Assembly (NCBI GenBank): GCA_024679065.1
Contig: JAGIQG010000009.1
Span: 91,202,001-91,266,000 of the forward strand
Direction of reading: 5' to 3'
Length of the DNA stretch: 64,000 nucleotides
From: Sphyrna mokarran
Lineage: Eukaryota
The notes beneath the pieces were generated by a model, which was given only the letters and a program-made list of their open reading frames with translations, did no database searches and was not told where the DNA came from. Positions 1 through 62,965 of the stretch are shown piece after piece; position 1 is the stretch's first letter, and every line of letters starts with the position of its first letter. A program made the position numbers and the translations under genes.

Positions 1-1545
1 GGATGTGGGAGGAAACCAGAGCTCCCGGAGAAAACCCACGCAAGCACGGGGAGAATGCGCAAACTCCCACAGACACAAGCCAAAATCCACGTATCTGCAC
101 AGCACAGCGATAGTCACTGAGCTGTTGTGTTGCCCATCAAATGGTCCAGTCAAGCATACACTAACGACGTGAAGCACTAGGATACTCTCAAAAAAAAAAA
201 TCCAAGAGCAGCTCTCTCACGACCTATCACGTGTATGCTCCTTGTTGGACAACAAGGTGGACCAAAGCACCTGTAGGATAAAAACAAGTACATCAATATC
301 ATCATCTATTTACACACTTCACAGGGACTTCCAAGGCTCATGATCCCTATTTTAAATCAGTTTTCTATACCCCTCCATTCCCATTCTGTTCATGTGCCCA
401 TCTAAGTATTTCTTAAATAACTCAGAGTACCTGCCTCCACCACTTTACTTGGCAGCGCATTCCATACCCCCACCACCCTCTGTGTGAAAAAACTCCCTCT
501 AGCATCCAAGTTATACCTTACCCCCCTCACCCTAAGCCAGTGACCCCTCGTGCTATTCGAGTCCATCCTAGGAAAAAGCTTAACCCTGTTTACTCTATCT
601 ATACCCCTCATAATCTTGTACACCTCTATCAGATCTCTTCTAAGTCTACGTCTTTCTAAGGAAAACAGTCCCAATTTGCCTAACCTCTCCTTGTAACTCA
701 GACCTTCTATACCAGGCAGCATCCTGGTAAACCTCCTCTGCACTCTCTCCAGAGTCTCCACGTCCTTCCGGTAGTAAGGCGACCAGAACTGGACGCAGTA
801 TTCCAAATGAGGTCTAACCAAGGTTTTATACAACTGCAACATTAAAGGCCAGCTCTTGTACTCTATACCCCTTCCTATAAAGGCTAACATACTATATGCT
901 TTCTTCACAACCTTCTCCACTTGCTCTGCCACCTTCAGAGACTTGTTCACCTGCACCCCCAGCTCCCTCTGCGTTTCTATACTCTTAATAGGTCTACCCT
1001 TTAATATATACCTCCCCTCTACATTCTTTCTCCCGAAATGCATCACCTCACATTTATCAGGATTGAATTCCATCTGCCATCTGTCTGCCCAAGCTACCAG
1101 TCTATCTATGTCCTGCTGCATTGCCTGACAATGCTCCTCACTATCCGCAAGTCCAGCCATCTTTGTATCGTTTGCAAACTTGCTGATCACTCCACTTACT
1201 CCCTCTTCCAAGTCATTTATATATATTACAAATAGAAGAGGTCCCAGGACCGAGCCCTGCGGCACCCCACTAGTGACTGACCTTCAGCTAGAAAAACACC
1301 CTCCCACTATTACTCTCTGTCTCCTATTACCAAGCCAGTTACTTATCTATCTAGCTACCTGTCCTTGTATCCCATGAGCCTTGACCTTTTCAACTAACCT
1401 CCCATGAGGGACTTTGTCAAACACCTTACTAAAATCCATATAGACGACATCAACGGCTCGCCCTTTGTCCACCGTTTTCGTCACCTCCTCAAAAAATTCT
1501 ACAAGATTTGTAAGGCACGACTTCCTCTTAACAAATCCATGCTGC
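1..1545 (-). mobile_element. 5'-truncated CR1 LINE (RT C-terminal half) with composite SINE-containing 3' UTR (subfamily A); runs off the left edge
   Basis: ORFs 1347-1547 and 402-1265 contain CR1 RT motifs ([56 protein letters not shown]). Near-identical to 39328-40680 in the opposite orientation. Confidence 0.95.
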
Positions 1546-5800: not shown

Positions 5801-8634
5801 CTGCCTGTTGAAGTGGTGAAGGTTACCTTGCTGAATATGTTTAAGTTATGGATGGATAGGTTTCTGATAGACAAGGAGAGAGAGAGAGAGAGCAACACAG
5901 CACGGGAAACAGGCCCTTCGGCCCAATGAGCCCGCGCCGCTGTCATAACTATATAGTAACAGTTCCATTATCCTATCCTAATTTTAGGTTATTCCTAATA
6001 TAGAAGAGTCTAAATGTAGGGACAATTTGTTTCCCAATCAGCCTAAGAACGAATTTTTGGGATGTGGGAGGAAACCGGAGCGCCCGGAGAAAACCCACGC
6101 AACCACGGGGAGAACGCGCAAACTCCCGCAGACACCGGCCCAATTCCAAGTGTCTGCACAGCTACAGCGATAGTCACTGAGCGGTCATGGTGCCCTTCAG
6201 ATGGTCCAGATAAAGCACTCATTTACGACATGAAGCACCAGGCAACCCATGAATCAACATCCAAGAGCTGTCCTCGCACCACCTGCCGAATGCATGCTCC
6301 TTGATGGTCAAGTATGGACTGAATTACCTGTGGAAAAAAAGCCATAGTTAAACAGTCCTACTATATCCCTCTATCTGCATAACGCTCATGTGGCTGTCCA
6401 AGAGACCCTTAAACACCCCTAGCGTGCCTGCTCCCACCACCTTACTCGGCAGTGCATTCCACACCCCCACTACCCTTTGTGTGAAAAACTGCCCTCTAAT
6501 ATTCGTCTTATACATAGCCCCCCTCACCCTAAGTCCATGACCCCTCGTCCTATCCATTTCTGAAGGTGGAAAAAGTTTACCACCATTTACTCTATCTATA
6601 CCCCTTATAATCTTATACACCTCTATTAGATCCCCTCTAAGCCGACGTCTTTCAAGGGAAAACAACCCCAGTCTATTTAATCGTTCCTAATAAGACAGTC
6701 CTTCCATACCAGGCAGCATCCTGGTAAACCTCCTCTGCACTCTCTCCAAGGACTCCACATCCTTCTGATAGTACGGCGACCAGAACTGGACGCAGTATTC
6801 CAAGTAAGGCCTAACCAACGTTCTATACAATTGCAACATCAAACTCCTACTCTTGTATTCTATACCCTTTTCTATGAAAGCTAACATACTATACGCCTTC
6901 TTTATCACCTTCTCCATCTGTGAGCACACCTTCAGAGACTTGTGAACCTGCACCCCCAAGTCTCTCTGTGTCTCTATGCTCCGTATAGTTTTACCTTTTA
7001 TCCTATAACTCTCTTCTACATTTTTCCGGCCAAAATGCATCACCTCGCATTTATCCGGATTAAATTCCATTTGCCATCTATCTGCCCAGTCTACCAACCT
7101 ACCTATGTCCTGTTGTATTGCCTGACACTGCTCCTCTGTACCCGCCAATCCAAGCATCTTGGTGTCATCAGCAAATTTGCTGATCTCACCACCTACCCCA
7201 ACTTCCAAGTCATTTATGTAGACCACAAATAGAAGAGGACCTAGTACTGAGCCTTGTGGCACTCCACTAGTGACAGGCTTCCAGTCGGAAAAAGAGCCCT
7301 CCACTACTACCCTCTGTCTCCTCCTCCCGAGCCAGTTCTCGACCCATCTACATACCCGACCCTGTATCCCATGCGCCTTCACCTTGTCTATCAGTCTACC
7401 ATGAGGAACCTTGTCAAACGCCTTACTGAAATCCATGTAGACGAAATCAACAGCATGTCCTTCATCAACTGTTTTTGCCACTTCTTCAAAAAATTCCACT
7501 AGATTTGTAAGACAAGACTTCCCCTTGACGAAGCCATGCTGTGTATCCCTGATCAGATCGCAGCACTCCAGATGCTCATACATCCTGTCCCTAAGGATCC
7601 TCTCCATTAGCTTACCTATAACTGAAGTCAAGCTCACCAGCCTATAGTTCCCTGGGTGATCCCTCTGACCTTTTTTAAACAATGGTACTACGTTTGCTAT
7701 CCTCCAGTCCTCTAGGACCTCACCTGTGTCCAAGGAAGAGACAAAGATTTGCGTCAGAGGCCCAGCCAAGTCTTCCCTCAACTCCCTTAGCAGCCTGGGT
7801 AAATGCCATCAGGCCCCGGAGCTTTATATGTCTTTAAGCTGCCTAACAGCCCCAACACCTCTTTCCTCGTAATCCTTATTTCCCTCAACCAATCTTCAAC
7901 TTTGTCCACATCAGGCACAGACATCTGTCCAGTCTCCTGCGTGAATACCGACGCAAAGTATTCATTCAGGATCTCCCCCATTCCCTCAGGCTCTAAGCAT
8001 AGATCCCCTCCACTGTCCCTAAGAGGTCCAATCTTGCCTCTAACCATCCTTTTGCTCCTCACATAGGTGTAAAATGCCTTTGGATTTTCCTTAATCCTAC
8101 CTGCCAGAGCCACCTCGTGGCCCCTTTTTGCCTTTCTAATACCCCTTTTAAGATCCCGTCTACACTCTCTATAAGCTTCCAGCGCTGTCTCAGTCCCCAG
8201 TTGCCTAGATCTAATGTAAGCCTCTCGCTTCTTCCTGATCAAGTCCTCAATATCCCTGGTAAGCCACGGTTCTCTAATCCTACCTTTCCCATCCTTCCTC
8301 CTTGCCGGCACGTATCTTTCCTGCAGAGAGTTTAGTTTTCCCTTGAACGACTCCCACATGTACCTCGTCGACCTGCCCTCGAAAAGCTTATCCCAGTCGG
8401 TATCTTTAAGATCTTGCCTAATCTGGCTGTATCTAGCCCTCCCCCAGTTAAACACCTTCCCTTTTGGGCCAGTCTCGTCCTTTTCCATTAATATCCTAAA
8501 GCAGACAGAGTTGTGATCACTATTAAATTAAAGGTTATGGGGATAAAGCGGGAAATTGGAACTGATCCACTGAATGGCGGGGCAGGTTCAAAGGACTAGA
8601 TGCCCTATTCCTACTCCTATATCATATGTTCATA
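2840..8634 (+). mobile_element. Long degraded CR1 LINE (ORF1 end, APE endonuclease, RT, 3' tail) inserted in the ERV with 7-bp TSD ACTACCT; interrupted at 5879-8522
   Basis: Endonuclease motifs (GGGVVLL, VGVVYRSP, MGDFN) and RT motifs ([16 protein letters not shown]). The tail resumes at ~8525. ACTACCT at 2833-2839 and 8635-8641. Confidence 0.92.
5879..8522 (-). mobile_element. Young CR1 LINE (subfamily B), nearly intact RT, composite SINE-containing 3' UTR, nested in the 3' end of another CR1
   Basis: ORFs 7787-8488, 6687-7781 (364 aa, KFADDTK) and 6348-6665, broken only by a frameshift and a stop. The host CR1 is continuous across it. Near-identical to 60673-61940. Confidence 0.95.
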
Positions 8635-28235: not shown

Positions 28236-29846
28236 AAATCATAGAACTCTACAATGCAGAAAGAGGCCCTTCGGCCTACCAAGTCTGCACCGAATACAAT
28301 CCCACCCAGGCCCTACCCCATATCTCTACATATGATACCCACTAATCCCTCTAGACTTCACATCCCTGCATACTAAGGGGCAATTTCTTAGAACATAGAA
28401 CATTACAGCGCAGAACAGACCCTTCGGCCCTCGATGTTGCGCCGACCAATTAAGAAAAAGCAATGACTCTCTAACCTAAACCGTTCCCTTTTCATCCATA
28501 AACCTATCCAGGGACTTCTTAAACGCTCCCAATCTTGGCGCATCTACAACTGCAGCAGGCAGGGCATTCCATACCCTTACTACCCTCTGGGTAAAGAACC
28601 TACCTCTGACATCCGTCCTATAACTACCATCCCTTAATTTAAAGCTATGTCCCCTCGTGCTAGCTTTCTCCATCCGAGGAAAAAGGCTATCACTGTCCAC
28701 CCTTTCTAAACCCCTGATCATCTTGTATGTTTCAATAAGGTCTCCTCTTAGCCGCCTTCTTTCTAATGAAAACAACCTCAAATCCCTCAGCCTCTCTTCA
28801 TAAGACCCTCCCTTCATACCAGGCAACATCCTGGTAAACCTCCTCTGCACCATCTCCGATGCCTCCACATCTTTCTTATAATGTGGGGACCAGAACTGTA
28901 CACAATACTCCAAGTGCAGCTGCACCAGAGTTTTGTACAGTTGCAACATGATGTTGTGGCTCCGAAATTCAATCCCCCTACCAATAAATGCCAAGACTCC
29001 GTATGCCTTCTTAACAACCTTATCGACTTGATTGCCAACTTTCAGGGATCTATGCACATATACACCTAGATCCCTCTGTTCATCAACACTATTAAGAGTC
29101 CTACCATTAGCCCTATACTTTACACATTTGTTATTCCTGCCAAAGTGAATTACCTCACACTTTTCCGCATTAAACTCCATTTGCCACCTCTCGGCCCAGC
29201 TATGCAACTTGTCCAAGTCTCTCTGCAAACTATAACACCCCTCTTCACTATCTACCACTCCTCCGACTTTGGTGTCATCCACAAATTTAGTAATCCATCC
29301 TTCTATACCCTCATCCAGATCATTTATAAAAATTACAAACAGCAGGGGCCCCAAAACAGATCCCTGAGGTACACCACTTGTAACTGAACTCCATGATGAA
29401 TAATTCCCATCAACCACCACCCTCTGTCTTCTATCAGCTAGCCAATTCCGAATCCAATTAGCTAAATCACCCTCAATCCCATACATCTGCATTTTCTGCA
29501 AAAGCCTTCCATGGGGAGCCTTATCGAACGTCTTACTAAAGTCCATATATACCACGTCAATTGCCTTACCCTTATCCACCTCTTTGGTCACTTTTTCAAA
29601 AAACTCAATAAGGTTAGTAAGGCACGACCTACCCTTCACAAAAACTATGCTGACTATCCCCAATCAATTCATTAACCTGCACATCTTTGGACTGTGGGAG
29701 GAATCCGGAGTACCCGGAGGAAACCCACGCAGACAAGAGGAGAATGTACAAACTCCACACAGACAGTGACCCGAGCCGGAAATCGAACCCAGGATCCTGG
29801 AGCTGTGAAGCAGCAGTGCTAAACCACTGTGCTTACCGTGCCGCCC
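28236..29846 (-). mobile_element. HE1-type V-SINE split by a CR1 insertion (head and V domain 29660-29846, tail 28236-28387)
   Basis: tRNA-like head with A/B boxes (minus strand GGGCGGCACGG...CAGTGGTTTAGCACTG...GGGTTCGATTTCC) and V-domain GGAGTTTG...CCTCCGGGTACTCCGGATTCCTCCCACAGTCCAAAG. The tail resumes beyond the CR1. Confidence 0.85.
28388..29660 (-). mobile_element. Young 5'-truncated CR1 LINE with uninterrupted 395-aa RT frame
   Basis: ORF 28476-29663 contains SCLTNL, YMDFSKTFDKAPH, PQGSVLGP, KFVDDTK and FFTQRVVRVWNALP, with a (TGTTCTA)n tail. Same family as 1830-2193. Confidence 0.95.
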
Positions 29847-31204
29847 TCAGTCTAATCAGTCGATCAGCTGACTGTATGATATTGCAATTGATGGACAGGT
29901 GATCTTGTGAAAATCTGTTTGGTCAGTCGGTTTTGATTCAGTCTTCCTGTAAATAGCAGATTAACTAAATTATAGTTAATTACTAAAAGTAGTAAAAGTA
30001 GCACTAAAAGTAGCCAGATGCCTTTAGGGAGGGCCTTATTCGTCTTGTACTCTCTCAAAATTAGTATTCAGAACCGAACGCGGTGGAAAATGTTGGTTAC
30101 TTCAGACACCCATGGTTTTTAGCTGACCAAAATGTGTAATATGGAAAGAGAAAACAGACATGTTTTCAACAGGATTGACCGGATAAACCCCCGGCTGAAG
30201 AATACGAGTGTACACCAATGACCAAAACAACATATCGTCATGCATTATACCGGAAATAAATATTAATGATTCCTTTCAGTTAGTGAATTATAGAAGTTAG
30301 ATCCTGAAATAATATCTGTTGTTATTTTTTAGGCAATGTATAAAAAAATCAGTTATTCTTTTCACGAACAGGGCATGCTCAGGTTTAAGTTATCGCCCAG
30401 CAAAGGCACAGATACATGCAAAGTCAGCAAACTATTCGCTGGATTTTTCAGTTTACCCAGACGGACTGATTTATAGACGTACCATCTTCACAGCAGTGCA
30501 AAAATATTCTTTTCTCACTGACACCGCCTGGGTCAGCTTTTCAATTCCTATCTGAAATCACGCAAATCCTAAAACCAAATCTTCAATTTCATCGCGGGAA
30601 ACTAATAAAAATCCGCACGTGCATTGACTAATACAAGGAACATGGATATGGACTTTTCAAAACGGAGTTTATTTGATATAACGTACCCAAACGAGCCGAG
30701 GTGATTTATTATCCCTGAATACCTGTCCAATAATAAGGATGCTTCATTCAGTAACACGTTTGTCTAGAAAATTAGAAACTTTAAGACGATGATTAACTGT
30801 CTCCAATTGAATAATGTAACTTTCATATAAAATTCTTCTATTGATTCTTGCCATCCAACCATCCAGCCCCACACCACATCTGAGCACGAGGCGAGTATCT
30901 GCTGATAGGACCATCGTAAACCCTGGAAGGAGACTTAATATCGCAATTATATGACCCAGCAGAAAAAAACAATGCTTCAATATCCACAAAGATGATGTAT
31001 TATCATTAAAAAAAAACTGGGATGGAGCCATCCGCCCAAATTTAAACAGGTTCCGCATGAAATCAAGGCAACTGAGCCGCAGGAAATTTCCCTCTTCCAG
31101 CTCTCGAATGTTATCAGCAGTACTTGAGGTCATCCTTCAAACGGCTATTGCGCTGTTTACACATTTATATTTCCCACGGTCCGATCCTAACAAGGTCCAA
31201 TTTT

Positions 31205-32015: not shown

Positions 32016-32307
32016 GTACTTTTAAACGTTGTTTTCAGTAAAAATGCTTGAATTATTACAAATATGAAGCAAGACTTGGCGAGATTACGTTTATCTCAGG
32101 TCTAAACTCGACTTTATTTGATTACCAAAGCAATGATAACATCGTTATAGCACATTGTTTAGCATTGCAGAAAGGACAGCTTTTAAAAATCCCTTTGGAA
32201 AGCAGTCACTGTCCTAGTCCCAGAATAGTCGGTGTTCATGATATACTGCTTGCAACTGATCAATCTTCAAATAAAAATTCCAGCCAAATTTTATATTTTC
32301 ATTTAGA

Positions 32308-34740
32308 TACAGGGAGGTATTCTGTAGGGAAGGGAGTGTGGGCAGTATGTTATTTAATTACCCAGTGGTGCTGTAGGGAAGGGAGTGTGGACAGTGTGTT
32401 ATTCAGTAACAAGGAGGCGTGGTTTAGAGAAGGGAGTATGGATAACGTGTTATTTAGTTACAGGGAGGTGTGCTGTACGGATAGTGTGTTCTGCAGTCAT
32501 AGGACAATGTGCTGTAGCAACGGAAGTGTGGGCAGTGTTAGTTACAGGACGGTGTGCTGCAGGGAAGGGAGCGTGGACAGTGTGTTATTCAACTACAGTA
32601 CGGTATGGTTTAAAGAAGGTAGTGTGGAGAGTGTATTATTTAATTACGGAGGTATGCAGTAGGGAAGGCAGTGTAGAAAGTGTTATTGTTACAGAGAGAG
32701 ATGTGCTGCAGTGAAGGGAGTGTGGGCAGTGTATTATTCAGTCACAGCAAGTGTACTGTAGGGAAAGGAGTGTGGACAATATGTTACTCAGTTACAGGGG
32801 GTGTATTGTAGAGGAAGGGAGTCTGGACGATGTGTTAGTTACACGACTTTGTGCTGTTGGAAACGGAGTGTGGACAGTGTGTTATTCAGTTACAGAGAAG
32901 TGCGGTTTAGAGGAAGGAGTGTGGAAGGTGTATTATTCAGTTACAAAATGATGTGCTCTAGGGAAGGGAATGGGTTAACAATATGTTATTCGGTCACAGG
33001 ACGTTGTGCTGAAGGGAAAGGAGTGTGGCCAACGTGTTATTAAGTTGACAGCAGTGCTGTTGGGAAAGATGTGTGAACATGTCTTCTTGAGTTACAGTGG
33101 GTGTTTTGTGAGGAAGGGAAGGTGGACAGTCTGTTATTCAGTGACGGGAGAATGCGCTGGAAGGAAAGGAGTACGGACGGTGTGTTACTCAATTACTTGA
33201 CGGTGTGCAGTGGAGAAGGGATCGTGGACAGTGTTATTCAGTTACAGGGAGATGTGCTATAGGGAACGGGCGTGAGGACAACGACCCATCGCATGTATGC
33301 CCCTTGTTAGACAACAAGGCAGACCAAAGTACCTGTAGGATAAAAACAAATACATCAATATCATCAACTATTTACACACTTCCCAGGAACTCCCAAGGTT
33401 CATGATCCCTATTTTAAATCAGTTTTCTATATCCCTCCATTCCCATTCTGTTCATGTGCCCGTCTAAGTATTTAAGGAGCCTTGGTGAATTCCTGCAGTG
33501 CATCTTGTAGATGGTATACACTGCTGTCACTGTGCATCAGTGGAGGGAGTGATTGTGTGTGAATTGAAGGCCAACCAATCGGTTGTTTTGCCCTGGATGA
33601 CCTTCTTGAATAAAGCTGGAGTTACATCCATCCAGGCAAGTGGAGTTTATTCCATTACACTCCTGACTTGTGCATTGCAGGTGGTGATCAGGTTTTGGAG
33701 AGTCAGGAGGTGAGTTAGCGGGATTATTAGACTCTAACATGATTAGGGAGGAATGCTGTAGGGAAGGGAGTGGGGACAGTGTGTTATTCAGTTACAGGAT
33801 GCTACGCCGTAGGAAAGGACTGTTGATGATGTGTTATTCAGTTACAGGGAAATGTAGGAACAGGAGTGTGGACTTTATATTATTCAGTTACAGGGAGGTG
33901 TACTGCAGGGAAGGGAGTGTAGACAGTGTGTGTCGTTCAGTTATATTTACTCGGAGGTATGCTGTAGGAAATGGAGTGTTGAAAATATGTTATTAAGTTA
34001 TAGGACAGTGTGCTATAGGCTAGGAGTGTGGACAGTGTTGTTCAGTTACACGGACGTGTGCTGTAGAGAAGGGAATGTTGATAGTGTGTTATTCAGTTAC
34101 AGGATTGTGTGCTGCTCGAAGTAAGAATAGACAATGTGTTATTCAGTTGCAGGACAGTGTGCTGTAGGTAAGCGAGTGTCGATGTTATGCTATTTAGTGA
34201 CAGGACAGTGTGCTGTAGGGAAGCAAGTGTGGACAGTGTTATTCAGTTGCATGTAAATGTGCTATAGGAACAGGAGTGAGGACAACTTGCAATTTACTCT
34301 GTTTTGTTCTGTAGGGAAGGAAATGTAGACAGTGTGTTTATCAGTTACAGAGTGGCATGCTGCATCAAACGGAGTGGAGACAGTGTGTTATTCATTTACA
34401 GGATGCTGTGCGTAGGGAAACAAATGTTGATGGTGTGTTATTCAGTTACAGGGAAATGTGCTGTAGGAATGGGAGTGTGGACATTGTATTATTTAGTTAC
34501 AGGGAGGTATACTGTAGGGAAGGGACTGTTGATAGCACATTATTAAGTTACAGGACAGTATGCTGTAGGACAGGAGTGCGGACAGTATGTTGTTCAGTTA
34601 CACGGAGGTGTGCTGTAGAGAAGGGAATGTTGGTAGTATGTTATTCAGTTACAGGATTGTGTGCTGCAGGAAATTAGTGTGGACAGTTGCAGGATAGCAT
34701 GCTGTTGGGAAGCGAGTGCAGACAGTGTATTTTTCAGTTG
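32308..34740. repeat. Minisatellite, ~51-bp unit (TTATTCAGTTACAGGGAGGTGTGCTGTAGGGAAGGGAGTGTGGACAGTGTG-like), interrupted at ~33280-33740 by LINE fragments
   Basis: Anchors TT(C/T/A)AGTTAC at 34441, 34492 and 34543 are spaced 51 bp apart, with dozens of degenerate copies. Confidence 0.93.
33280..33472 (-). mobile_element. Fragment of the subfamily-A CR1 composite 3' UTR
   Basis: Matches window positions ~220-411 (AACAAGG..ACCTGTAGGATAAAAACAA...TCATGATCCCTATTTTAAATCAG). Confidence 0.85.
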
Positions 34741-37837: not shown

Positions 37838-39150
37838 CCGTTAAACCCCCGAACCCTACCCTCTCCCCCCTGAATCCCACTCCCTCCCCCCGAACCCCAC
37901 CCCTCCCCTCAGAGCCTCAATCCTTTTCCCCTGAACCCCAACCCCTTCTCCCTGAACCCCAACCCCTACCACAGAAACTCAACCGCTCCCCAACCCTAAA
38001 AACTACCTCCCCACCCCGTCCTCAAACCTCACTTGCATCCCCACCCTTCCCCCAATTTCCATCCTCTCCCATCCTCAACTTCACCCCTATACAGACGCCT
38101 AACTTTACCCCAACTGCACTCCCACCCCCATGCCAACTTCACCCCCTACCCTACCTCCCCTAACATATTTCTCGAGTGATATGGAGTAACAAGCCCCAAG
38201 AACCATGAATGAACAGAGATATTCACGATATTTGAGAAAAGAACAAGCAGGGGTCACGGAGGACAACCGTTAAACTCCCTGAATTCCCTCCCCCCACCTG
38301 CATCCCTTACCCCTCCCCCACTCCATCCCCAACTTCACCTCTTCTCAAAACCCTAACTTCACTCCCCTCCTTATCCCCAACTTACCCCATGCCCTAACTT
38401 CATCTCCACTCCTATCATCACCCCTTCCTCTAACTTCACCCCCACCCACTTCACCCCCACTGACACACTCTTCTTCACCCTCTCCCACACCCCTAACTTC
38501 ACCCTCTTCCCTACCCCAACTTACCCTTCCCCCAACTTTACCCCGACTCCCATCATCATCATCGCTTCCCTCAACTTCACCCCCACGCACCCTCCAATTT
38601 CGTCCCCACCCACAATTTCACTCCCACCCAATTTTACCCCCTCCCCAATTTCACCCCACTCCCATCATCACTCCTTCCCTCAACTTCACCAGCACCCGCC
38701 TGCAACTTCATCCCACTCCCAAATTCACGCCCACCCACAACCCTAACTTTACCCATACCCCCAACTTCACCCCTCCCACACTCCCAACTTCACCCCCAAC
38801 TTCATCTATCTACATCCCAACTTCACCCCCCTCCCATTGTCCCAACATCATTCCTCCCCAAGCTGCACACTGTATCCACCATCATAACAAATCCCACTCC
38901 CACCTTCTTCACCCTCTTCTCACCCCTAACTTCAACCCCACCCTCACCCTCTTCCCCACCCTCAATTTATGCTCTTGTCCTTCCCCAAATTTACTCCCAA
39001 ACCCAACTTCATCCCCTCCCCATCCCAACTTACCCCCTCCTCCCTCCCCAAATTTACCCCTCCCCAAATTTACCCCCTTCCCCAACTTCATCTCCTCCTC
39101 CAAATTCACCCCTTCCCCTATCCCCAGCTTCCCCCATGCCCAACTTCCTT
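37838..39150. repeat. C-rich low-complexity/minisatellite (CCCCAACTTCACCC-like) in two blocks
   Basis: Repeated CCC(C/T)AACTT(C/T)ACCCC. Both blocks start CCGTTAAAC (37838, ~38267) and end in the same CR1 fragment (~38170, ~39150). Confidence 0.88.
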
Positions 39151-39327: not shown

Positions 39328-40854
39328 TATGGATAAGTAACTGGCTTAGTAATAGGAGACAGAGAGTAATAGTGGAAGGGTGTTTTTCTAGCTGGAGGTC
39401 AGTCAGTAGTGGTGTGCTGCAGGGCTCGGTACTGGGACCTCTTCTATTTGTAATATATATAAATGACTTGGAAGAGGGAGTAAGTGGAGTGATCAGCAAG
39501 TTTGCAGATGATACAAAGATGGCGGGACTTGCGGATAGTGAGGAGCATTGTCAGGCGATGCAGCAGGACATAGATAGGCTGGTAGCTTGGGCAGACAGAT
39601 GGCAGATGGAATTCAATCCTGATAAATGTGAGGTGATGCATTTCGGGAGAAAGAATGTAGGGGGAGGTATATGATAAAGGGTAGACCTATTAAGAGTATA
39701 GAAATGCAGAGGGACCTGGGGGTGCAGGTGAACAAGTCTCTGAAGGTGGCAGAGCAAGTGGAGAAGGTTGTGAAGAAAGCATATAGTATGTTAGCCTTTA
39801 TAGGAAGGGGTATAGAGAACAAGAGCTGGCCTTTAATGTTGCAGTTATAGAAAACGTTGGTTAGACCTCATTTGGAATACTGCGTCCAGTTCTGGTCACC
39901 TTACTACCGGAAGGATGTGGAGACTCTGGAGAGGGTGCAGAGGGGGTTTACCAGGATGCTGCCCTGATATGGAAGGCCTGAGTTATGAGGAGAGGTTAGG
40001 CAAATTGGGGCTGTTTTCCTTAGAAAGACGTAGACTTAGAGGAGATCTAGTAGAGGTGTACAAGATTATTATAGGGGTATCGATAGATTAAACAGGGTTA
40101 AGCTTTTTCCTAGGATGGACTCAAATAGCACGAGGGGTCACGGGCTTAGGGTGAGGAGGGTAAGGTATAATTTGGATGCTAGAGGGAGTTTTTTCACACA
40201 GAGGGTGGTGGAGGTATGGAATGCGCTGCCAAGTAAAGTGGTAGAGGCAGGTACTCTGGAATTATTTAAGAAATACTTAGATGGGCACATGAACAGAATG
40301 GGAATGGAGGGGTATAGAAAACTGATTTAAAATAAGGATCATGAGCCTTGGGAGTGTGTAAATAGATGATGATATTGATGTACTTGTTTTTAACCTACAG
40401 GTGCTTTTGTCCACCTTGTTGTCTAACAAGTGGCATATACACGATGGGTCGTGAGAGGGCTGCTCTTGGATTTTTTTTTGAGATATCCTAGTGCTTCACG
40501 TCGTTAGTGTACGCTTGACCTGGACCATTTGATGGGCAACACGACAGCTCAGTGGCTATCGCTGTGCTGTGCAGATACATGGATTTGGGCCTGTGTCTGT
40601 GGGAGTTTGCGCATTTTCCCTGTACTTGCGTGGGTTTTCTCCGGGTGCTCCGGTTTCCTCCCACATCCCAAAGATGTGCTCTTAGGCTAATTGGCAAAAC
40701 AAATTCTCCCTAAATTGTCTCAAATTTGGTCTTTAATCCATAGATCTATAAACATGGACAGGGGTCACGGGTAGAGGTGGGAACATCAGGATGGTGGCAC
40801 GGGCTTGTTGGGCTGAAGGGCCTGTTTCCCATGCTGCTTTGTTCTTTGTTCTTT
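39328..40854 (+). mobile_element. CR1 LINE subfamily A with complete composite 3' UTR; possible TSD GTAAA
   Basis: RT motifs QGSVLGPLLF and KFADDTK. The UTR has an acceptor-like motif (AG 40399-40400), an embedded SINE and a (TTTGTTC)n tail. GTAAA at 39323-39327 and 40855-40859. Confidence 0.93.
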
Positions 40855-41048
40855 GTAAAGAGGAGATTTGAGAAAACTCTGGCTGGTAAAAGGAAGAAAA
40901 ATCCCAAGATACTCTGAGTATATCAGTGAAAAGGAGAGGATCATGGAAAGAATAGGCTCATTCTGGACCAGGGGACAATCTGTAGCCGGAAACAGAGAAC
41001 ATCAGTGGAGTGTTGAGTAAATACTTTGCCTCTGTTTTCACCCAAGAA

Positions 41049-42533
41049 AACATGTCAATCTCCCCCGTTCCGCAGACCTTCCTAGTGTCATGGCACTTAT
41101 TGAATACTTCCTTGTCAAATTACTCCTTCCAAAGTATATCACCTCACACTTTTCAGGGATAAATTCTATCTGTCGCTTATCTGTCCAATTACCTATGCCT
41201 TCTATATTTCTTGTAGCCTAAGGCACTCAATCTCTATGATAACTACCCAGCCAATCTTTGTATCACCCCTGAGCTTACTAATCTTACTCCCCACATAATC
41301 AACTATGCTGCTTATATAAATGATGAATAATAAGACAGATTCCCCCTGGAATTCCACTGGACACTGGCTTCCAGTCACTAAAGCAGCCCTCTATCATCAC
41401 CCTCTGTCACCTATAACAGCCAATTTTAAATCCACCTTATCAAATTACCCTTATCGAAGGTTTAGCTGAAATCCATATAAATCATATCAACTGCACTATT
41501 ATCACCTAAATAACTCATCACCTCCTCAAAAACTCAATCAAATGTTAGGCATGACATCCTAGTGATAAAGCTATTTTGACTATCCCTGATCAAACCTTGT
41601 CTCTCCAAGTGGAGAAAGATTCTCTCTTTCCTGAATTTCCGCATCTGAAAATGCGGATGAAGGTGTGGAATTCAGGGAAAGAGACTGAGGTTGTTGAATA
41701 AATTGACATAGGGAGTGACAAGATATTGGAGGTGTTGGCAGGCTTAGAAGTAGGCAAATCAGCTCATAGGCTGCTGTGGGAAGCAAGGGAGGAGATTGCA
41801 AGGGCACTGACCCAAATTTTTAATTCCTCGTTGGCCATGGGGGAGATGCTAGAAGGCTGGAGAACTACTAATGTGGTTCCACTGTTTAAGAAGGGTTGTA
41901 GAGTGAAACCTTTGTCACATCAGGGTAGGGTAACTATTGGAAAAAATTCAGGAAAGAGAGAATCTTTCTCCACTTGGAGAGACAAGGTTTGATCAGGGAT
42001 AGTCAAAATAGCTTTATCACTAGGATGTCATGCCTAACATTTGATTGAGATTTTGAGGAGGTGATGAGTTATTTAGGTGATAATAGTGCAGTTGATATGA
42101 TTTATATGGATTTCAGCTAAACCTTTGATAAGGGTAATTTGATAAGGTGGATTTAAAATTGGCTGTTATAGGTGACAGAGGGTGATGATAGAGGGCTGCT
42201 TTAGTGACTGGAAGCCAGTGTCCAGTGGAATTCCAGGGGGAATCTGTCTTATTATTCATCATTTATATAAGCAGCATAGTTGATTATGTGGGGAGTAAGA
42301 TTAGTAAGCTCAGGGGTGATACAAAGATTGGCTGGGTAGTTATCATAGAGATTGAGTGCCTTAGGCTACAAGAAATATAGAAGGCATAGGTAATTGGACA
42401 GATAAGCGACAGATAGAATTTATCCCTGAAAAGTGTGAGGTGATATACTTTGGAAGGAGTAATTTGACAAGGAAGTATTCAATAAGTGCCATGACACTAG
42501 GAAGGTCTGCGGAACGGGGGAGATTGACATGTT
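41049..42533. repeat. Near-perfect 590-bp inverted duplication (41049-41638 / 41944-42533), 305-bp spacer
   Basis: The arm ends match as reverse complements (AACATGTCAATCTCCCCCG / CGGGGGAGATTGACATGTT and TCTCTTTCCTGAATTT / AAATTCAGGAAAGAGA). Only about 2 mismatches were noticed. Confidence 0.92.
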
Positions 42534-42619: not shown

Positions 42620-42905
42620 TGGGGCAACACAGTGCCACAGTTGTTAACACTTTACCTCACAGCGCCAGAGATCCAGGTTCGATTCCCGGTTTGGGTGACT
42701 GTCTGTATGGAGTTTGTACATCCTCCCCGTATCTGCATGTGTTTCCTCCGGGTGCTCCACAGTCTGAAAGACCTGATGGGGTTAGGTGCATTGGCCACCT
42801 AAATTCTCCCTCAATGTACCTGAACAGGAGCTGGGAATGTGGTGACTAGGAGCTTTTCACAGTAACTTCATGTAAGTCTACTTGTGACACTGATAAATAA
42901 TAAAT
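42620..42905 (+). mobile_element. V-SINE (variant tail)
   Basis: GGGGCAACACAGTGCCACAGTTGTTAACAC...CCAGGTTCGATTCCCGG head and V domain. The tail is shared with 62683-62965. Confidence 0.85.
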
Positions 42906-45864: not shown

Positions 45865-48150
45865 TGATTTTGATTTATTATTGTTACATATATTGGTATA
45901 CAGTGAAGAGTATTGTTTCTTATGCTCTATACAGATAAAGAATTCTGTTCATCAAGTACCTTGGGGAGAAGAAAAGGACAGGGTGCAGAATATAGTGTTA
46001 CAGTCATAGCTATGGTGTAGAGAAATATTAGCTTAATATATGGTAGGTCTATTCAAAAGTCTGATGGCAGCAGGGAAGGAGATGTTCTTGAGTGATCTCA
46101 GACATTTGTATCTTTTTCTGGCGGAAGAAGGTAGAAGAGAATATGGCTGGGGTGCACGGGGTCCCTGATTACACTGGTTGTTTTTCTGAGGGATGGAAAG
46201 TGGAGACAGAGCCAATGGATAGGAGGCTGATTTGTATGATGACTGGGCTATGTTCACAACCCTTTGTAATTTCTTGTGGTCTTGGTCAGAGCAGTAACTA
46301 TACGAAAAAGTTGTGATACATCTGGAATGGTGCACCTGTAAAATTGGTGAGAGTCATAGCGGACATGTCAAATTTCCTTAGCTTGCTGAGAAAGTAGAGG
46401 CGTTGATAGGTTTTCTTAACTATAATGTCAGCATGGAGAGATCAGGACATGTTGTTGGTGACCTGGATACCTAGAAGCTTGAAGCTCTCAACCATTTCCA
46501 CTTAATCCCCATTGAAGTAAACAGGCTCTTTCTCCAACTGGAGGTGTGTCACTAGTGGTGTGCCACAGGGCTCAGTACTAGGACCTCTTCTATTTGTGGT
46601 TTATATAAATGACTTGGAAGAGGGGGTAGGTGGTGTGATCAGCAAATTTGCTGATGACACTAAGATGCTTGGATTGACGGGGACTGAGGAGCAATGCCAG
46701 GCAATACAACAGGACATAGATAGGCTGGTAGACTGGGCAGATAGATGGCAAATGGAATTTAATCCGGATAAATGCGAAGTGATGCATTTTGGCCGGAATA
46801 ATGTAGAGGGGAGTTACAGGATAAAAGGTAAAACTATCCAGAGTATAGAGACGCAGAGAGACCTGGGGGTGCAGGTTCACAAGTCTCTGAAGGTGTCAGT
46901 ACAAGTGGAGAAAGTGATAAAGAAAGCGTATGGTATGTTAGCCTTCATAGGAAGGGGTATAGAATACAAGAGTAGGAGTCTGATGTTGCAATTGTATAGA
47001 ACGTTGGTTAGGCCTCACTTGGAGTACTGCGTCCAGTTCTGGTTGCTGTACTACCGGAAGGATGTGGAGGCCTTGGAGAGAGTACAGAGGAGATTTACCA
47101 GGATGCTGCCTGGTATGGAAGGGCTGTCTTACGAGGAAAGATTGAACACACTAGGGTTGTTTTCCCTTGAAAGACGTCGGCTGAGAGGGGATCTATTAGA
47201 GGTATATAAGATTATAAGGGGTATAGATACAGTAAATGGTGGGAAGCTTTTTCCACCATTAGAAATGGATAGAACGAGGGGTCATGGCCTTAGGGTGAGG
47301 GGGGGCTATGTATAAGACGAATATTAGAGGGCAGTTTTTCACACAAAGGGTAGTGGGGGTGTGGAATGCACTGCCGAGTAAAGTGGTGGGAGCAGGCATG
47401 CTAGGGTTGTTTAAGGGTCTCTTGGACAGCCACATGAGCAGTCTGCAGATAGAGAGATATAGCAGGACTGTCTAAATATCTTATTTGTTTCCACAGGCAA
47501 TTCGGTCCACCTTGTTGACCAACAAGGTGCATGCATTCGGCAGGTCGTGCGAGGGCTGCTCTTGGATGTTGCTTCAGGAGTGGCCTAGTGCTTCAAGTTG
47601 TTAGTGTATGCTTAAATTGGACCATCTGATGGGCAACATGACAGCTCAGAGACTATCGCTGTTGCTGTGCAGACACATAGATTTGGCCTGTGTCTGCGGG
47701 AGTTTGTACGTTCTCCCCGTGGTTGCGTGGGTTTTCTCCGGGTGCTCCGGTTTCCTCCCACATCCCAAAAATGTGCTCTTAGGCTGATTGGGTAACAAAT
47801 TGTCCCTATATTTGTCCCTATATGGGAATCTTCCACAATAGGCATAGCCTAAAGTCATGGATATGTCATTAAGACGTTAGGACAGCGGCGCGGGCTCGTT
47901 GGGCCGAAGGGCCTGTTTCCCGTGCTGTGTTGCTCTCTGTTCTTTGTTCTATCCTTCACTACGCTTCCTCAAGTCGGTGACAATTTCTTTTGTTTTACTG
48001 ACGTTGAGGGAGAGATTATTGTCATTGCACATTTCACCAGATTCTCTATCTCTTTCCTATACTTCATCTCATTGTTTGATATCCAACCCACTATGGTGGT
48101 ATCATCAACAAACGTGAAAAGGGAGTTGGAGCAGAATTTGGTCACATAGT
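45865..48150 (-). mobile_element. Rex1/Babar-type LINE fragment (45865-46525 and 47952-48150) split by a CR1
   Basis: FTFVDDTTIVGWISNN..YRKEIENLV, KKLQRVVNIAQS and FPAAIRLLN. Same family as 21150-21680. Confidence 0.85.
46526..47951 (+). mobile_element. CR1 LINE (B-like variant) with complete composite 3' UTR
   Basis: ORF 46560-47315 (251 aa, RT C-terminus). The UTR has TTTGTTTCCACAG, a structured segment, an embedded SINE and a GGGCCGAAGGGCCTGTTTCC tail. Confidence 0.95.
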
Positions 48151-60672: not shown

Positions 60673-61940
60673 AGAGCAACACAGCACGGGAAACAGGCCC
60701 TTCGGCCCGACGAGCCCGCGCCGCCGTCATAACTATATAGTAACAATTCCATTATCCTATTCCAATTTTAGGTTATTCCTAATATGGAAGAGTCTCAATG
60801 TAGGGACAATTTGTTTCCCAATCAGCCCAAGAGCGAATTTTTTGGGATGTGGGAGGAAACCGGAGCGCCCGGAGAAAACCCACGCAACCACGGGGAGAAC
60901 GCGCAAACTCCCCCAGACACCGGCCCAATTCCAAGTGTCTGCACAGCTACAGCGATAGTCACTGAGCTGTCATGGTGCCCTTCAGATGGTCCAGATAAAG
61001 CACTCATTTACGACATGAAGCACCAGGCAACCCAAGAATCAACATCCAAGAGCTGTCCTCGCACCACCTGCCGAATGCATGCTCCTTGTTGGTCAAGTAT
61101 GGACCGAATTACCTGTGGAAAAAAAAGCCATAGTTAAACAGTCCTACTATATCCCTCTATCTGCATAACGCTCATGTGGCTGTCCAAGAGACCCTTAAAC
61201 AGCCCTAGCGTGCCTTCTCCCACCACCTTACTCGGCAGTGCATTCCACACCCCCACTACCCTTTGTGTGAAAAACTGCCCTCTAATATTCATCTTATACA
61301 TAGCCCCCCTCACCCTATGGCCATGACCCCTCGTCCTATCCATTTCTAAAGGTGGCAAAAGTTTACCTCCATTTACTCTATCTATACCCCTTATAATCTT
61401 ATACACCTCTATGAGATCCCCTCTAAGCCGACGTCTTTCAAGGGAAAACAACCCCAGTCTATCTAATCGTTCCTCATAAGACAGTCCTTCCATACCAGGC
61501 AGCATCCTGGTAAACCTCCTCTGCACTGTCTCCAAGGACTCCACATCCTTCCGATAGTACGGTGACCAGAACTGGACGCAGTATTCCAAGTGAGGCCTAA
61601 CCAACGTTCTATACAACTGCAACCTCAAACTCCTACTCTTGTATTCTATACCCTTTTCTATGAAAGCTAACATACTATACGCCTTCTTTATCACCTTCTC
61701 CACCTGTGAGGACACCTTCAGAGACTTGTGAACCTGCACCCCCAAGTCTCTCTGCATCTCTATGCTCCGTATAGTTTTACCTTTTATCCTATAACTCTTC
61801 TACATTTTTCCGGCCAAAATGCATCACCTCGCATTTATCCAGATTAAATTCCATTTGCCATCTATCTGCCCAGTCTACCAACCGATCTATGTCCTGTTGT
61901 ATTGCCTGGCACTGCTCCTCTGTACCCGCCAATCCAAACA
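60673..61940 (-). mobile_element. CR1 LINE subfamily B, 5'-truncated, composite 3' UTR
   Basis: ORF 61134-61757 encodes the RT C-terminus. Near-identical to ~5890-7150. Confidence 0.95.
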
Positions 61941-62682
61941 ATCCAAGCCAAAATTGTTTCTGTAAAAATAAATGAAGTGTGTTTTTGGCATTATTTAGCA
62001 CGATTGAATGTATTTTGATCTTGTAGATCATTTAGTAAGATCCATCATGAAGCTTACCAATCTCAATCTTTTATATGCCAACTCTTTCTTTTCCTATAAA
62101 TTTGATGAAAGACATGAATGCTGAAGAATAGACTATTTCCAATTTCAGGCACCTAGTGTGAACGTAGAGCATTCTCAGTTGAAGAATAAGGTATAATGAC
62201 TTTGACATTCTCAATTAATGTTATATTAAAAGCAGAGTTCTGCTGTGGGCTTGTGTGTTAGAAACAGATCAAGATTACGAGACTCATTTCATGTGGGACT
62301 TTTCTTTTACAAAAGATAAAAATTGGAGACTCTCATCCTATTAGTTTGATTTGATAATTAGCACTCTCACTGAATGAATGCCAGGCAGTGAGCACCTCCG
62401 ACCAGAGAGAGTTAACCATCTCCCAACAAATTTAATTGCATTGTCGTCATCAAATCCCCTATCATTAGTGTCCTGAAGTGTCACTATTCACTCGAAATGA
62501 GTACCACATGAACACTGTGGCTATATATGCAGGTCAATGACTGCAATTCTGTAGTGGGTGATTCATTGCTTGACTCCCCAAAGCATTTCCACCACTTTTA
62601 AGGCACAAGTCAGGACTGTGATGGAATATTCTCCACTTATATAGATGAGTGCAGTGTCAACAAGACTCAAGAAGCTCAATAC

Positions 62683-62965
62683 TGGGGTAGCACGGTGACA
62701 CAATGGTTAGCATTGCTGCCTCACAGTGCCAGCGACTCAGATTCGATTCCTGATTTGGGTCACTGTCTGTGCTGAATCTGAATGAGTTTTCTCAGTGTAC
62801 TTTGGTTTCCTCCAGGTATTTCAGTTTCCTCCCACACCCCAAGAGACGTGTTGATTAGGTGCATTCTCAGTGTACCAGAACAGATGCCGATGTGTGGTAA
62901 CGAGGGGATTTTCGCAGTAACTTCATTGCAGTGTTAACATAAACCTGCATGTAACACTAGCAGTT
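62683..62965 (+). mobile_element. V-SINE (variant tail) inserted in an old LINE fragment
   Basis: GGGGTAGCACGGTGACACAATGGTTAGCATTGCTGCCTCACAG...GATTCGATTCC head and V domain. Confidence 0.85.

Follow-up and report, generated by a model that had tools for sequence, protein, structure and literature searches.

The window analyzed here is a stretch of 64,000 nt from Sphyrna mokarran (assembly GCA_024679065.1, contig JAGIQG010000009.1, positions 91,202,001 to 91,266,000 of the forward strand). It contains copies of a CR1 LINE that carries, 3′ of its ORF2, the head and V domain of a V-SINE. The parts of one such copy are listed first below, followed by the other copies and two elements for comparison (window positions).

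46523..47475, + strand: 3′ part of a CR1 ORF2 (reverse transcriptase end) with one frameshift, in a 5′-truncated subfamily A copy; stop codon at 47473-47475; Pfam RVT_1 and endonuclease families were matched on a full-length relative.
47476..47496, + strand: pyrimidine tract and AG, a 3′ splice site immediately 3′ of the stop codon; top score among the 480 AGs of the subfamily A consensus, and joined to a GT donor in locus L142.
47497..47630, + strand: 134-nt segment, origin not found, that forms the start of the 3′ exon; same length in all subfamilies, no Rfam match.
47631..47689, + strand: tRNA-like V-SINE head in remodelled form, without the B-box region, which was deleted; in the predicted fold, the 3′ part of the head base-pairs with the beginning of V.
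47690..47807, + strand: V domain block; 99 of 118 aligned positions equal the free SINE consensus, and A and C differ at 8/118.
47808..47884, + strand: variable spacer from V to the tail; about 35% different between A and C, 65-138 nt across subfamilies.
47885..47950, + strand: CR1-type tail stem and 7-nt terminal repeats; 0/45 differences between A and C, terminates all 30 fetched loci.
5887..7559, - strand: subfamily B copy of the LINE-SINE unit, by alignment.
60673..61940, - strand: subfamily B copy of the LINE-SINE unit, by alignment.
39330..40856, + strand: subfamily C copy of the LINE-SINE unit, by alignment.
1..1544, - strand: subfamily C copy of the LINE-SINE unit, interrupted by the window edge; a normal tail was found just outside the window.
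33281..33473, - strand: subfamily C fragment with the ORF2 end, spacer, acceptor and first part of the unique segment, by alignment.
29673..29850, - strand: free V-SINE (head and V), by alignment, for comparison.
28389..29666, - strand: plain CR1 without the cassette, by alignment and by the ORF2-end tree, for comparison.

The initial annotation, made from the letters alone, described one common order of parts after the ORF2 stop in five CR1 copies and in a fragment at 33280, and all of them align in that order. It counted at least two to three subfamilies; the window copies form three, A (47473), B (5890 and 60673) and C (40330, 1-360 and 33280). The unique segment between acceptor and head, put at about 120 nt, measures 132-135 nt. 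Other CR1s of the window were thought to run straight from the stop codon to the tail. Those at 1835-2194 and 28389-29666 do lack the cassette, but a short UTR precedes their tail. At 28389-29850 the plain CR1 adjoins a free V-SINE that is cut directly after V, a chance SINE-then-LINE junction whose order is opposite to that of the cassette. An Rfam search of the window found no family at its cut-off and a single chance-level match in the UTR; no known RNA family or ribozyme was found. Elsewhere, the window holds a 590-bp inverted repeat (41049-41638 and 41944-42533, 99.7% identical, 305-bp spacer), which is a recent event or an assembly artefact, and degenerate tandem arrays of 21-nt, 51-nt and C-rich units (17769-18548, 32300-34740 and 37850-39150).

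We searched the genome with the unique segment, which gave 40 scored places among 419 candidates, and fetched 30 loci on 16 contigs, the window locus included. All 30 align without a break from ORF2 to the tail, with 90-97% identity (100% for the window itself) and unrelated 3′ flanks, and all present the ORF2 stop, acceptor, 134-nt segment, SINE head, V domain and tail in this order. Because the fetched loci are the top-scoring matches, the sample favours young copies. Constancy of the LINE-to-SINE junction had been proposed as a check of the unit, and the junction is identical in every one of the 30 top loci, which lie on 16 contigs and differ in their flanks. In the 20 longer fetches the 5′ ends are staggered. 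The unbroken alignment, the unrelated flanks and the staggered 5′ ends confirm that the chimeric CR1/V-SINE unit is real and is mobilised as one, as had been suggested. Target-site duplications flanking the whole unit, which had also been expected, were not clear in any of 53 copies: a shared word of length at least 7 was found in 9 of the 53, compared with 236 of 2756 control pairs. Target-site duplications are often missing from CR1s. At arbitrarily sampled places, the unique segment occurs in 9 copies per 400 kb, and the scaled copy number of the tail end of the unit is ~60,000 genome-wide (rough range 30,000-120,000). RNA contigs from runs labelled as two organisms (A and B) contain the unique segment and the head, so the occurrence of the unit extends beyond a single data set.

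The host LINE is a two-ORF CR1. From 20 loci fetched via the end of ORF1 we derived a consensus of 4.6 kb, in which ORF1 encodes 302 aa and ORF2 is open. Pfam families PF03372, PF14529 and PF00078, found on copy L138, identify an apurinic endonuclease and a reverse transcriptase. The ORF1 matches a solved LINE ORF1 protein (PDB 4c1b, E 7e-5) and is of the esterase type; a Pfam search on a frameshifted ORF1 copy gave no match. The hallmarks of the CR1 clade are present, namely short tandem repeats at the 3′ end and frequent 5′ truncation. In a FastTree phylogeny of ORF2 ends taken from this genome only, copies with the cassette group in one clade (support 0.995), surrounded by families whose UTRs are plain. 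Outside that clade lie one heavily truncated labelled copy and two mislabelled plain copies. The cassette is thus held by a single ORF2 clade whose related CR1 families lack it, in agreement with the earlier proposal that a single LINE captured the SINE.

The 5′UTR of the element consists of tandem monomers, ~200 nt long in A and 170 nt in C (L263, L277, L282, L214, L230; G000:C2:30558869-30559493). A TATA-like box lies near the monomer end, ~30 nt upstream of the next monomer start, which is where full-length copies begin. In section 15 of a survey of the CR1 group (PMC13343379), 5′ repeats are given only for ORF1-less elements. Four copies (L209, L258, L279 and L317) have an intact 5′ end and tail with large internal deletions, and keep ORF1 partly or wholly. 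At the other end of the element, single copies of related plain CR1s match the tail at 46-53 of 70 nt; the count is 46 for the free SINE consensus and 48 for two SINE copies. The initial annotation had the LINE using the tail of the SINE; by these counts the tail may stem from either the SINE or the LINE. A search upstream of the acceptor for a remnant of the original LINE tail gave no significant match.

Starting at its first base, the head is colinear with the free V-SINE consensus; among 2000 shuffles none scored as high, in A and C alike. Both the tRNA-derived head and the central V domain are present, and the source of the cassette is a V-SINE. We take the V block to be the same as the published V consensus. 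Across subfamilies, the head matches the free SINE at 37-52 of 60-78 positions (about two-thirds). The B box of the window copies had been described as eroded; its region was instead removed by an 18-19-nt deletion. One old copy still has the B-box stretch, and a search with this stretch recovered an old subfamily. In all 30 fetched loci of this old type the head is complete (79 nt) and its B box is mutated; 13 of them still have ORF2 upstream. The deletion is present in a second old group, in some copies preceding later neighbouring C-to-T changes, and the younger subfamilies lack 18 nt at the B box. The B-box deletion thus forms a series from an old mutated head through an intermediate to the fully remodelled states of later groups. 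Copy-to-consensus differences across the groups in age order are 7.6%, 5.9%, 2.9% and 1.5%, values that are biased low by hit selection. The cassette lacks an intact pair of Pol III A and B boxes, the B box being mutated in the oldest subfamily and deleted in the rest.

Because the oldest subfamily has a full-length tRNA-like head that decayed over time, the direction of transfer was from SINE into LINE. In 400 kb of random sequence, all eight matches to the remodelled head come after the unique segment, so no free SINE of the remodelled type was seen there. The head has diverged from the free SINE yet is nearly fixed among the LINE subfamilies, which argues that it is not refreshed from SINEs. 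Free V-SINEs themselves have two tail types, with 34 of 75 carrying a CR1-type tail and 27 of 75 another tail that ends in AATAAA repeats (random loci L081-L120; window 42633-42900 and 62680-62930). The latter is presumably L2-like.

We compared subfamilies A and C part by part. They differ at 88 of 254 fourfold sites (35%), whereas the head (4/59) and V (8/118) together are ~7% different. The unique segment differs at 28/134 positions, the variable spacer at 24/68 and the tail at 0/45. Fisher tests on these divergences gave p values of 6e-6, 1e-9 and 0.005. The initial annotation held that V was kept while the subfamilies diverged, and the comparison of V with the fourfold sites and with the V-to-tail spacer bears this out; it missed that the remodelled head is as conserved as V. 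Across subfamilies, V is identical to the free SINE at 96-102 of 118-120 positions (81-86%).

Lengths follow a similar pattern. Among five consensus sequences, the spacer between stop codon and AG measures 170, 165, 81, 21 and 21 nt (81 in C, 21 in A and B) and the V-to-tail spacer 138, 90, 81, 76 and 65 nt. While both spacers shrank, the unique segment, V and the tail kept a constant length. For each of the five consensus sequences, and for the free SINE as well, the prediction includes a stem that pairs the end of the head with the start of V and spans the former B-box site. Folding z-scores for the whole region are -2.8 and -1.8. Covariation is thin, with a term of -2.27 kcal/mol and two-sided change in 9 of 76 pairs. 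Given these values, the fold is a prediction. We infer that V may benefit the LINE RNA. A micro-ORF of ~30 codons in the unique segment was considered and rejected: B has an internal stop, an A sub-lineage has no stop codon, only 12 of 43 C copies have a T run that preserves the frame, and an ATG is missing from the old consensus.

Divergence shifts from free to constrained exactly at the acceptor. This post-stop acceptor scores first of 480 AGs in A and first of 345 in C, on a rough matrix with approximate frequencies. Every subfamily consensus keeps the branch-point-like word, the pyrimidine tract and the AG, with turnover of the letters within the tract. A strong GT donor lies 46-47 nt into full-length A elements, counted from the 5′ end; its counterpart in C is weak. 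That the acceptor is a genuine splice site is shown by one genomic copy, L142, in which it is joined; this copy has the element 5′ end, the whole 46-nt first exon, an exact GT-AG join and a normal tail, with both ORFs absent. A probe for the first exon with a non-intron continuation matched twice, at L142 and at one mutated donor. By comparison with the one clear spliced copy, the unspliced donor form has 122 exact matches, tandem repeats included. A probe for either junction found only two matches in the genome, L142 and L316. In L316, which is C-type, ~15 nt of the C first exon are joined at the homologous position. It is a weaker case for a second spliced copy, as a deletion followed by mutation would also fit.

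Deletions at microhomologies also terminate at the acceptor (L315 and L318; L317 and L321 are ambiguous). The GT was lost in ~25 of 29 variant 5′ ends, so the donor is dispensable. None of 29 matches has a short 5′UTR intron removed in a genomic copy. A search with other donors found one spliced copy among 14 matches, and the 50 loci examined of 119 matches contained none. More spliced copies may exist, since a further donor search had 159 matches, of which 100 were listed and 50 examined. In RNA contigs of four runs, with a full-length copy as target, the 15 of 29 joints listed included no donor-acceptor join, and V was not covered. Because contigs drop rare forms, a missing join in RNA is no evidence of absence. 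One RNA run (X21, organism H) left the UTR bins uncovered, a gap that is uninformative taken alone.

The reading we prefer, with a probability of roughly 0.6, is that an autonomous CR1 lineage copies the acceptor, the 134-nt segment and the V-SINE head and V as one unit, which is likely kept for helping to process or copy the LINE RNA. The unit would have arisen in a single capture, most simply when read-through or a template switch took in a host intron-exon junction containing a SINE. This is the simplest route because the acceptor and a foreign segment sit 5′ of the head. The Pol III promoter would then have been silenced by point changes and later deleted. With this promoter lost, the LINE copies presumably do not act as SINE source genes or make competing SINE RNA. 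Acceptors can mark a last exon for 3′-end processing and export. Here, the acceptor probably works mainly as such a last-exon signal, and complete splicing would be a rare by-product. V and the stems may act on RNA stability or on engagement of the reverse transcriptase.

The exact join in L142 also suggests a regulated switch, in which the 5′UTR donor would be spliced to the post-stop acceptor in some cells, destroying the coding RNA and releasing a 500-nt ORF-less V-SINE-like RNA made by Pol II, with selection on the acceptor for this outcome. The L316 candidate, at the homologous position in another subfamily, would fit, as would the survival of the acceptor through every spacer deletion and the turn from free to constrained divergence right at the acceptor. 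However, a sub-lineage spread in spite of having lost the donor, subfamily C has a weak one, and spliced copies make up less than ~1% of 5′ ends and were never amplified. In human L1, according to the accessible text of PMC5860796, spliced copies are uncommon dead ends, and the splice sites are maintained for different reasons. We therefore consider selection for such a switch improbable. We also find it unlikely that the parasite has turned into a terminal exon, in which case both ORFs would be intronic and a regulated splice would toggle between the coding RNA and a short structured Pol II-made V-domain RNA, itself copyable into the genome, so that V would act on RNA fate and not on Pol III transcription.

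The cassette could also be a neutral passenger of a one-off insertion. Its low divergence would then be due to exchange, either with SINE RNA or among LINE lineages, and the acceptor would be a relic that is sometimes mis-used. Free V-SINEs are abundant (~100 V matches in 400 kb), so templates for exchange exist, and the weak covariation is consistent with this idea. Nevertheless, the head has drifted from the free SINE (37-52 of 60-78) but is fixed among the LINE subfamilies. Fast spacers flank the conserved block, and a swap of 3′ ends would bring the downstream spacer too. Both spacers also shortened, whereas the lengths of the unique segment, V and the tail were kept. These features make a neutral passenger quite improbable.

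It is very improbable that V-SINEs derived from the 3′UTR of this LINE. Other groups do provide cases of SINE bodies made from LINE parts (PMC5786205, in the part available), but here the full-length tRNA-like head is in the oldest subfamily and decays later, the cassette is absent from related CR1 families, and V-SINEs range from vertebrates to cnidarians (PMC4824008, in the part available). Independent SINE insertions next to LINEs, or segmental duplication, might be expected where both LINE and SINE are dense, as in this genome, but are refuted by the identical junction at 30 of 30 loci on 16 contigs with unrelated flanks and staggered 5′ ends.

Several known systems resemble the captured unit that we favour, and the comparisons below draw on the accessible text of the sources. 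The V-SINE HE1 and its partner LINE HER1 are a shark and ray pair (tabulated in PMC3747384). Free SINEs of such a build, with a tRNA-like head, V domain and CR1-type tail, fill this genome. In contrast to that pair, here the head and V lie inside the LINE's own RNA, 3′ of intact ORFs, and the B box is gone. MER6/MER6A likewise represents a V-SINE captured and spread by another mobile element (PMC6887750). However, MER6 is a non-autonomous DNA transposon, whereas here an autonomous retrotransposon passes the captured piece through RNA and the piece is constrained between subfamilies. The SpIREs of human L1 share a 5′UTR donor, rare spliced genomic copies and conserved splice sites (PMC5860796). 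Their acceptors lie in the 5′UTR or ORF1, while the acceptor described here is 3′ of the ORF2 stop; splicing to it therefore takes out both ORFs as intron and leaves a SINE-like RNA. Bipartite LINE derivatives also join a LINE 5′ end to a 3′ end, as the spliced copy does (PMC5786205). There, and in LINE-derived SINE bodies, the changes are described as internal deletions and the flow is from LINE to SINE, whereas we observed a GT-AG join and a flow from SINE to LINE. The accessible text of the 2026 CR1-group survey (PMC13343379) does not mention splicing and has the word SINE once, in a reference title. In the main texts of the openly accessible literature, we found no CR1 with an internal V-SINE or such a splice; the consensus may be present in supplementary repeat libraries (for instance that of PMC13343379).

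The persistence of SINE central domains like V across animals is treated as an open question in the accessible text of PMC4824008 and PMC6887750. In the present LINE, constraint on V acts within an RNA that lacks a Pol III promoter and provides proteins of its own, and this suggests a role in RNA handling or in reverse transcription. The five subfamilies provide a stepwise record of domestication, and a single element combines V, the head stem and the splice site, each of which can be removed separately. Control of a dominant LINE by the host or by itself would gain an unusual handle in an acceptor able to remove both ORFs, and host splicing could be trapped by the tens of thousands of strong acceptors in the genome.
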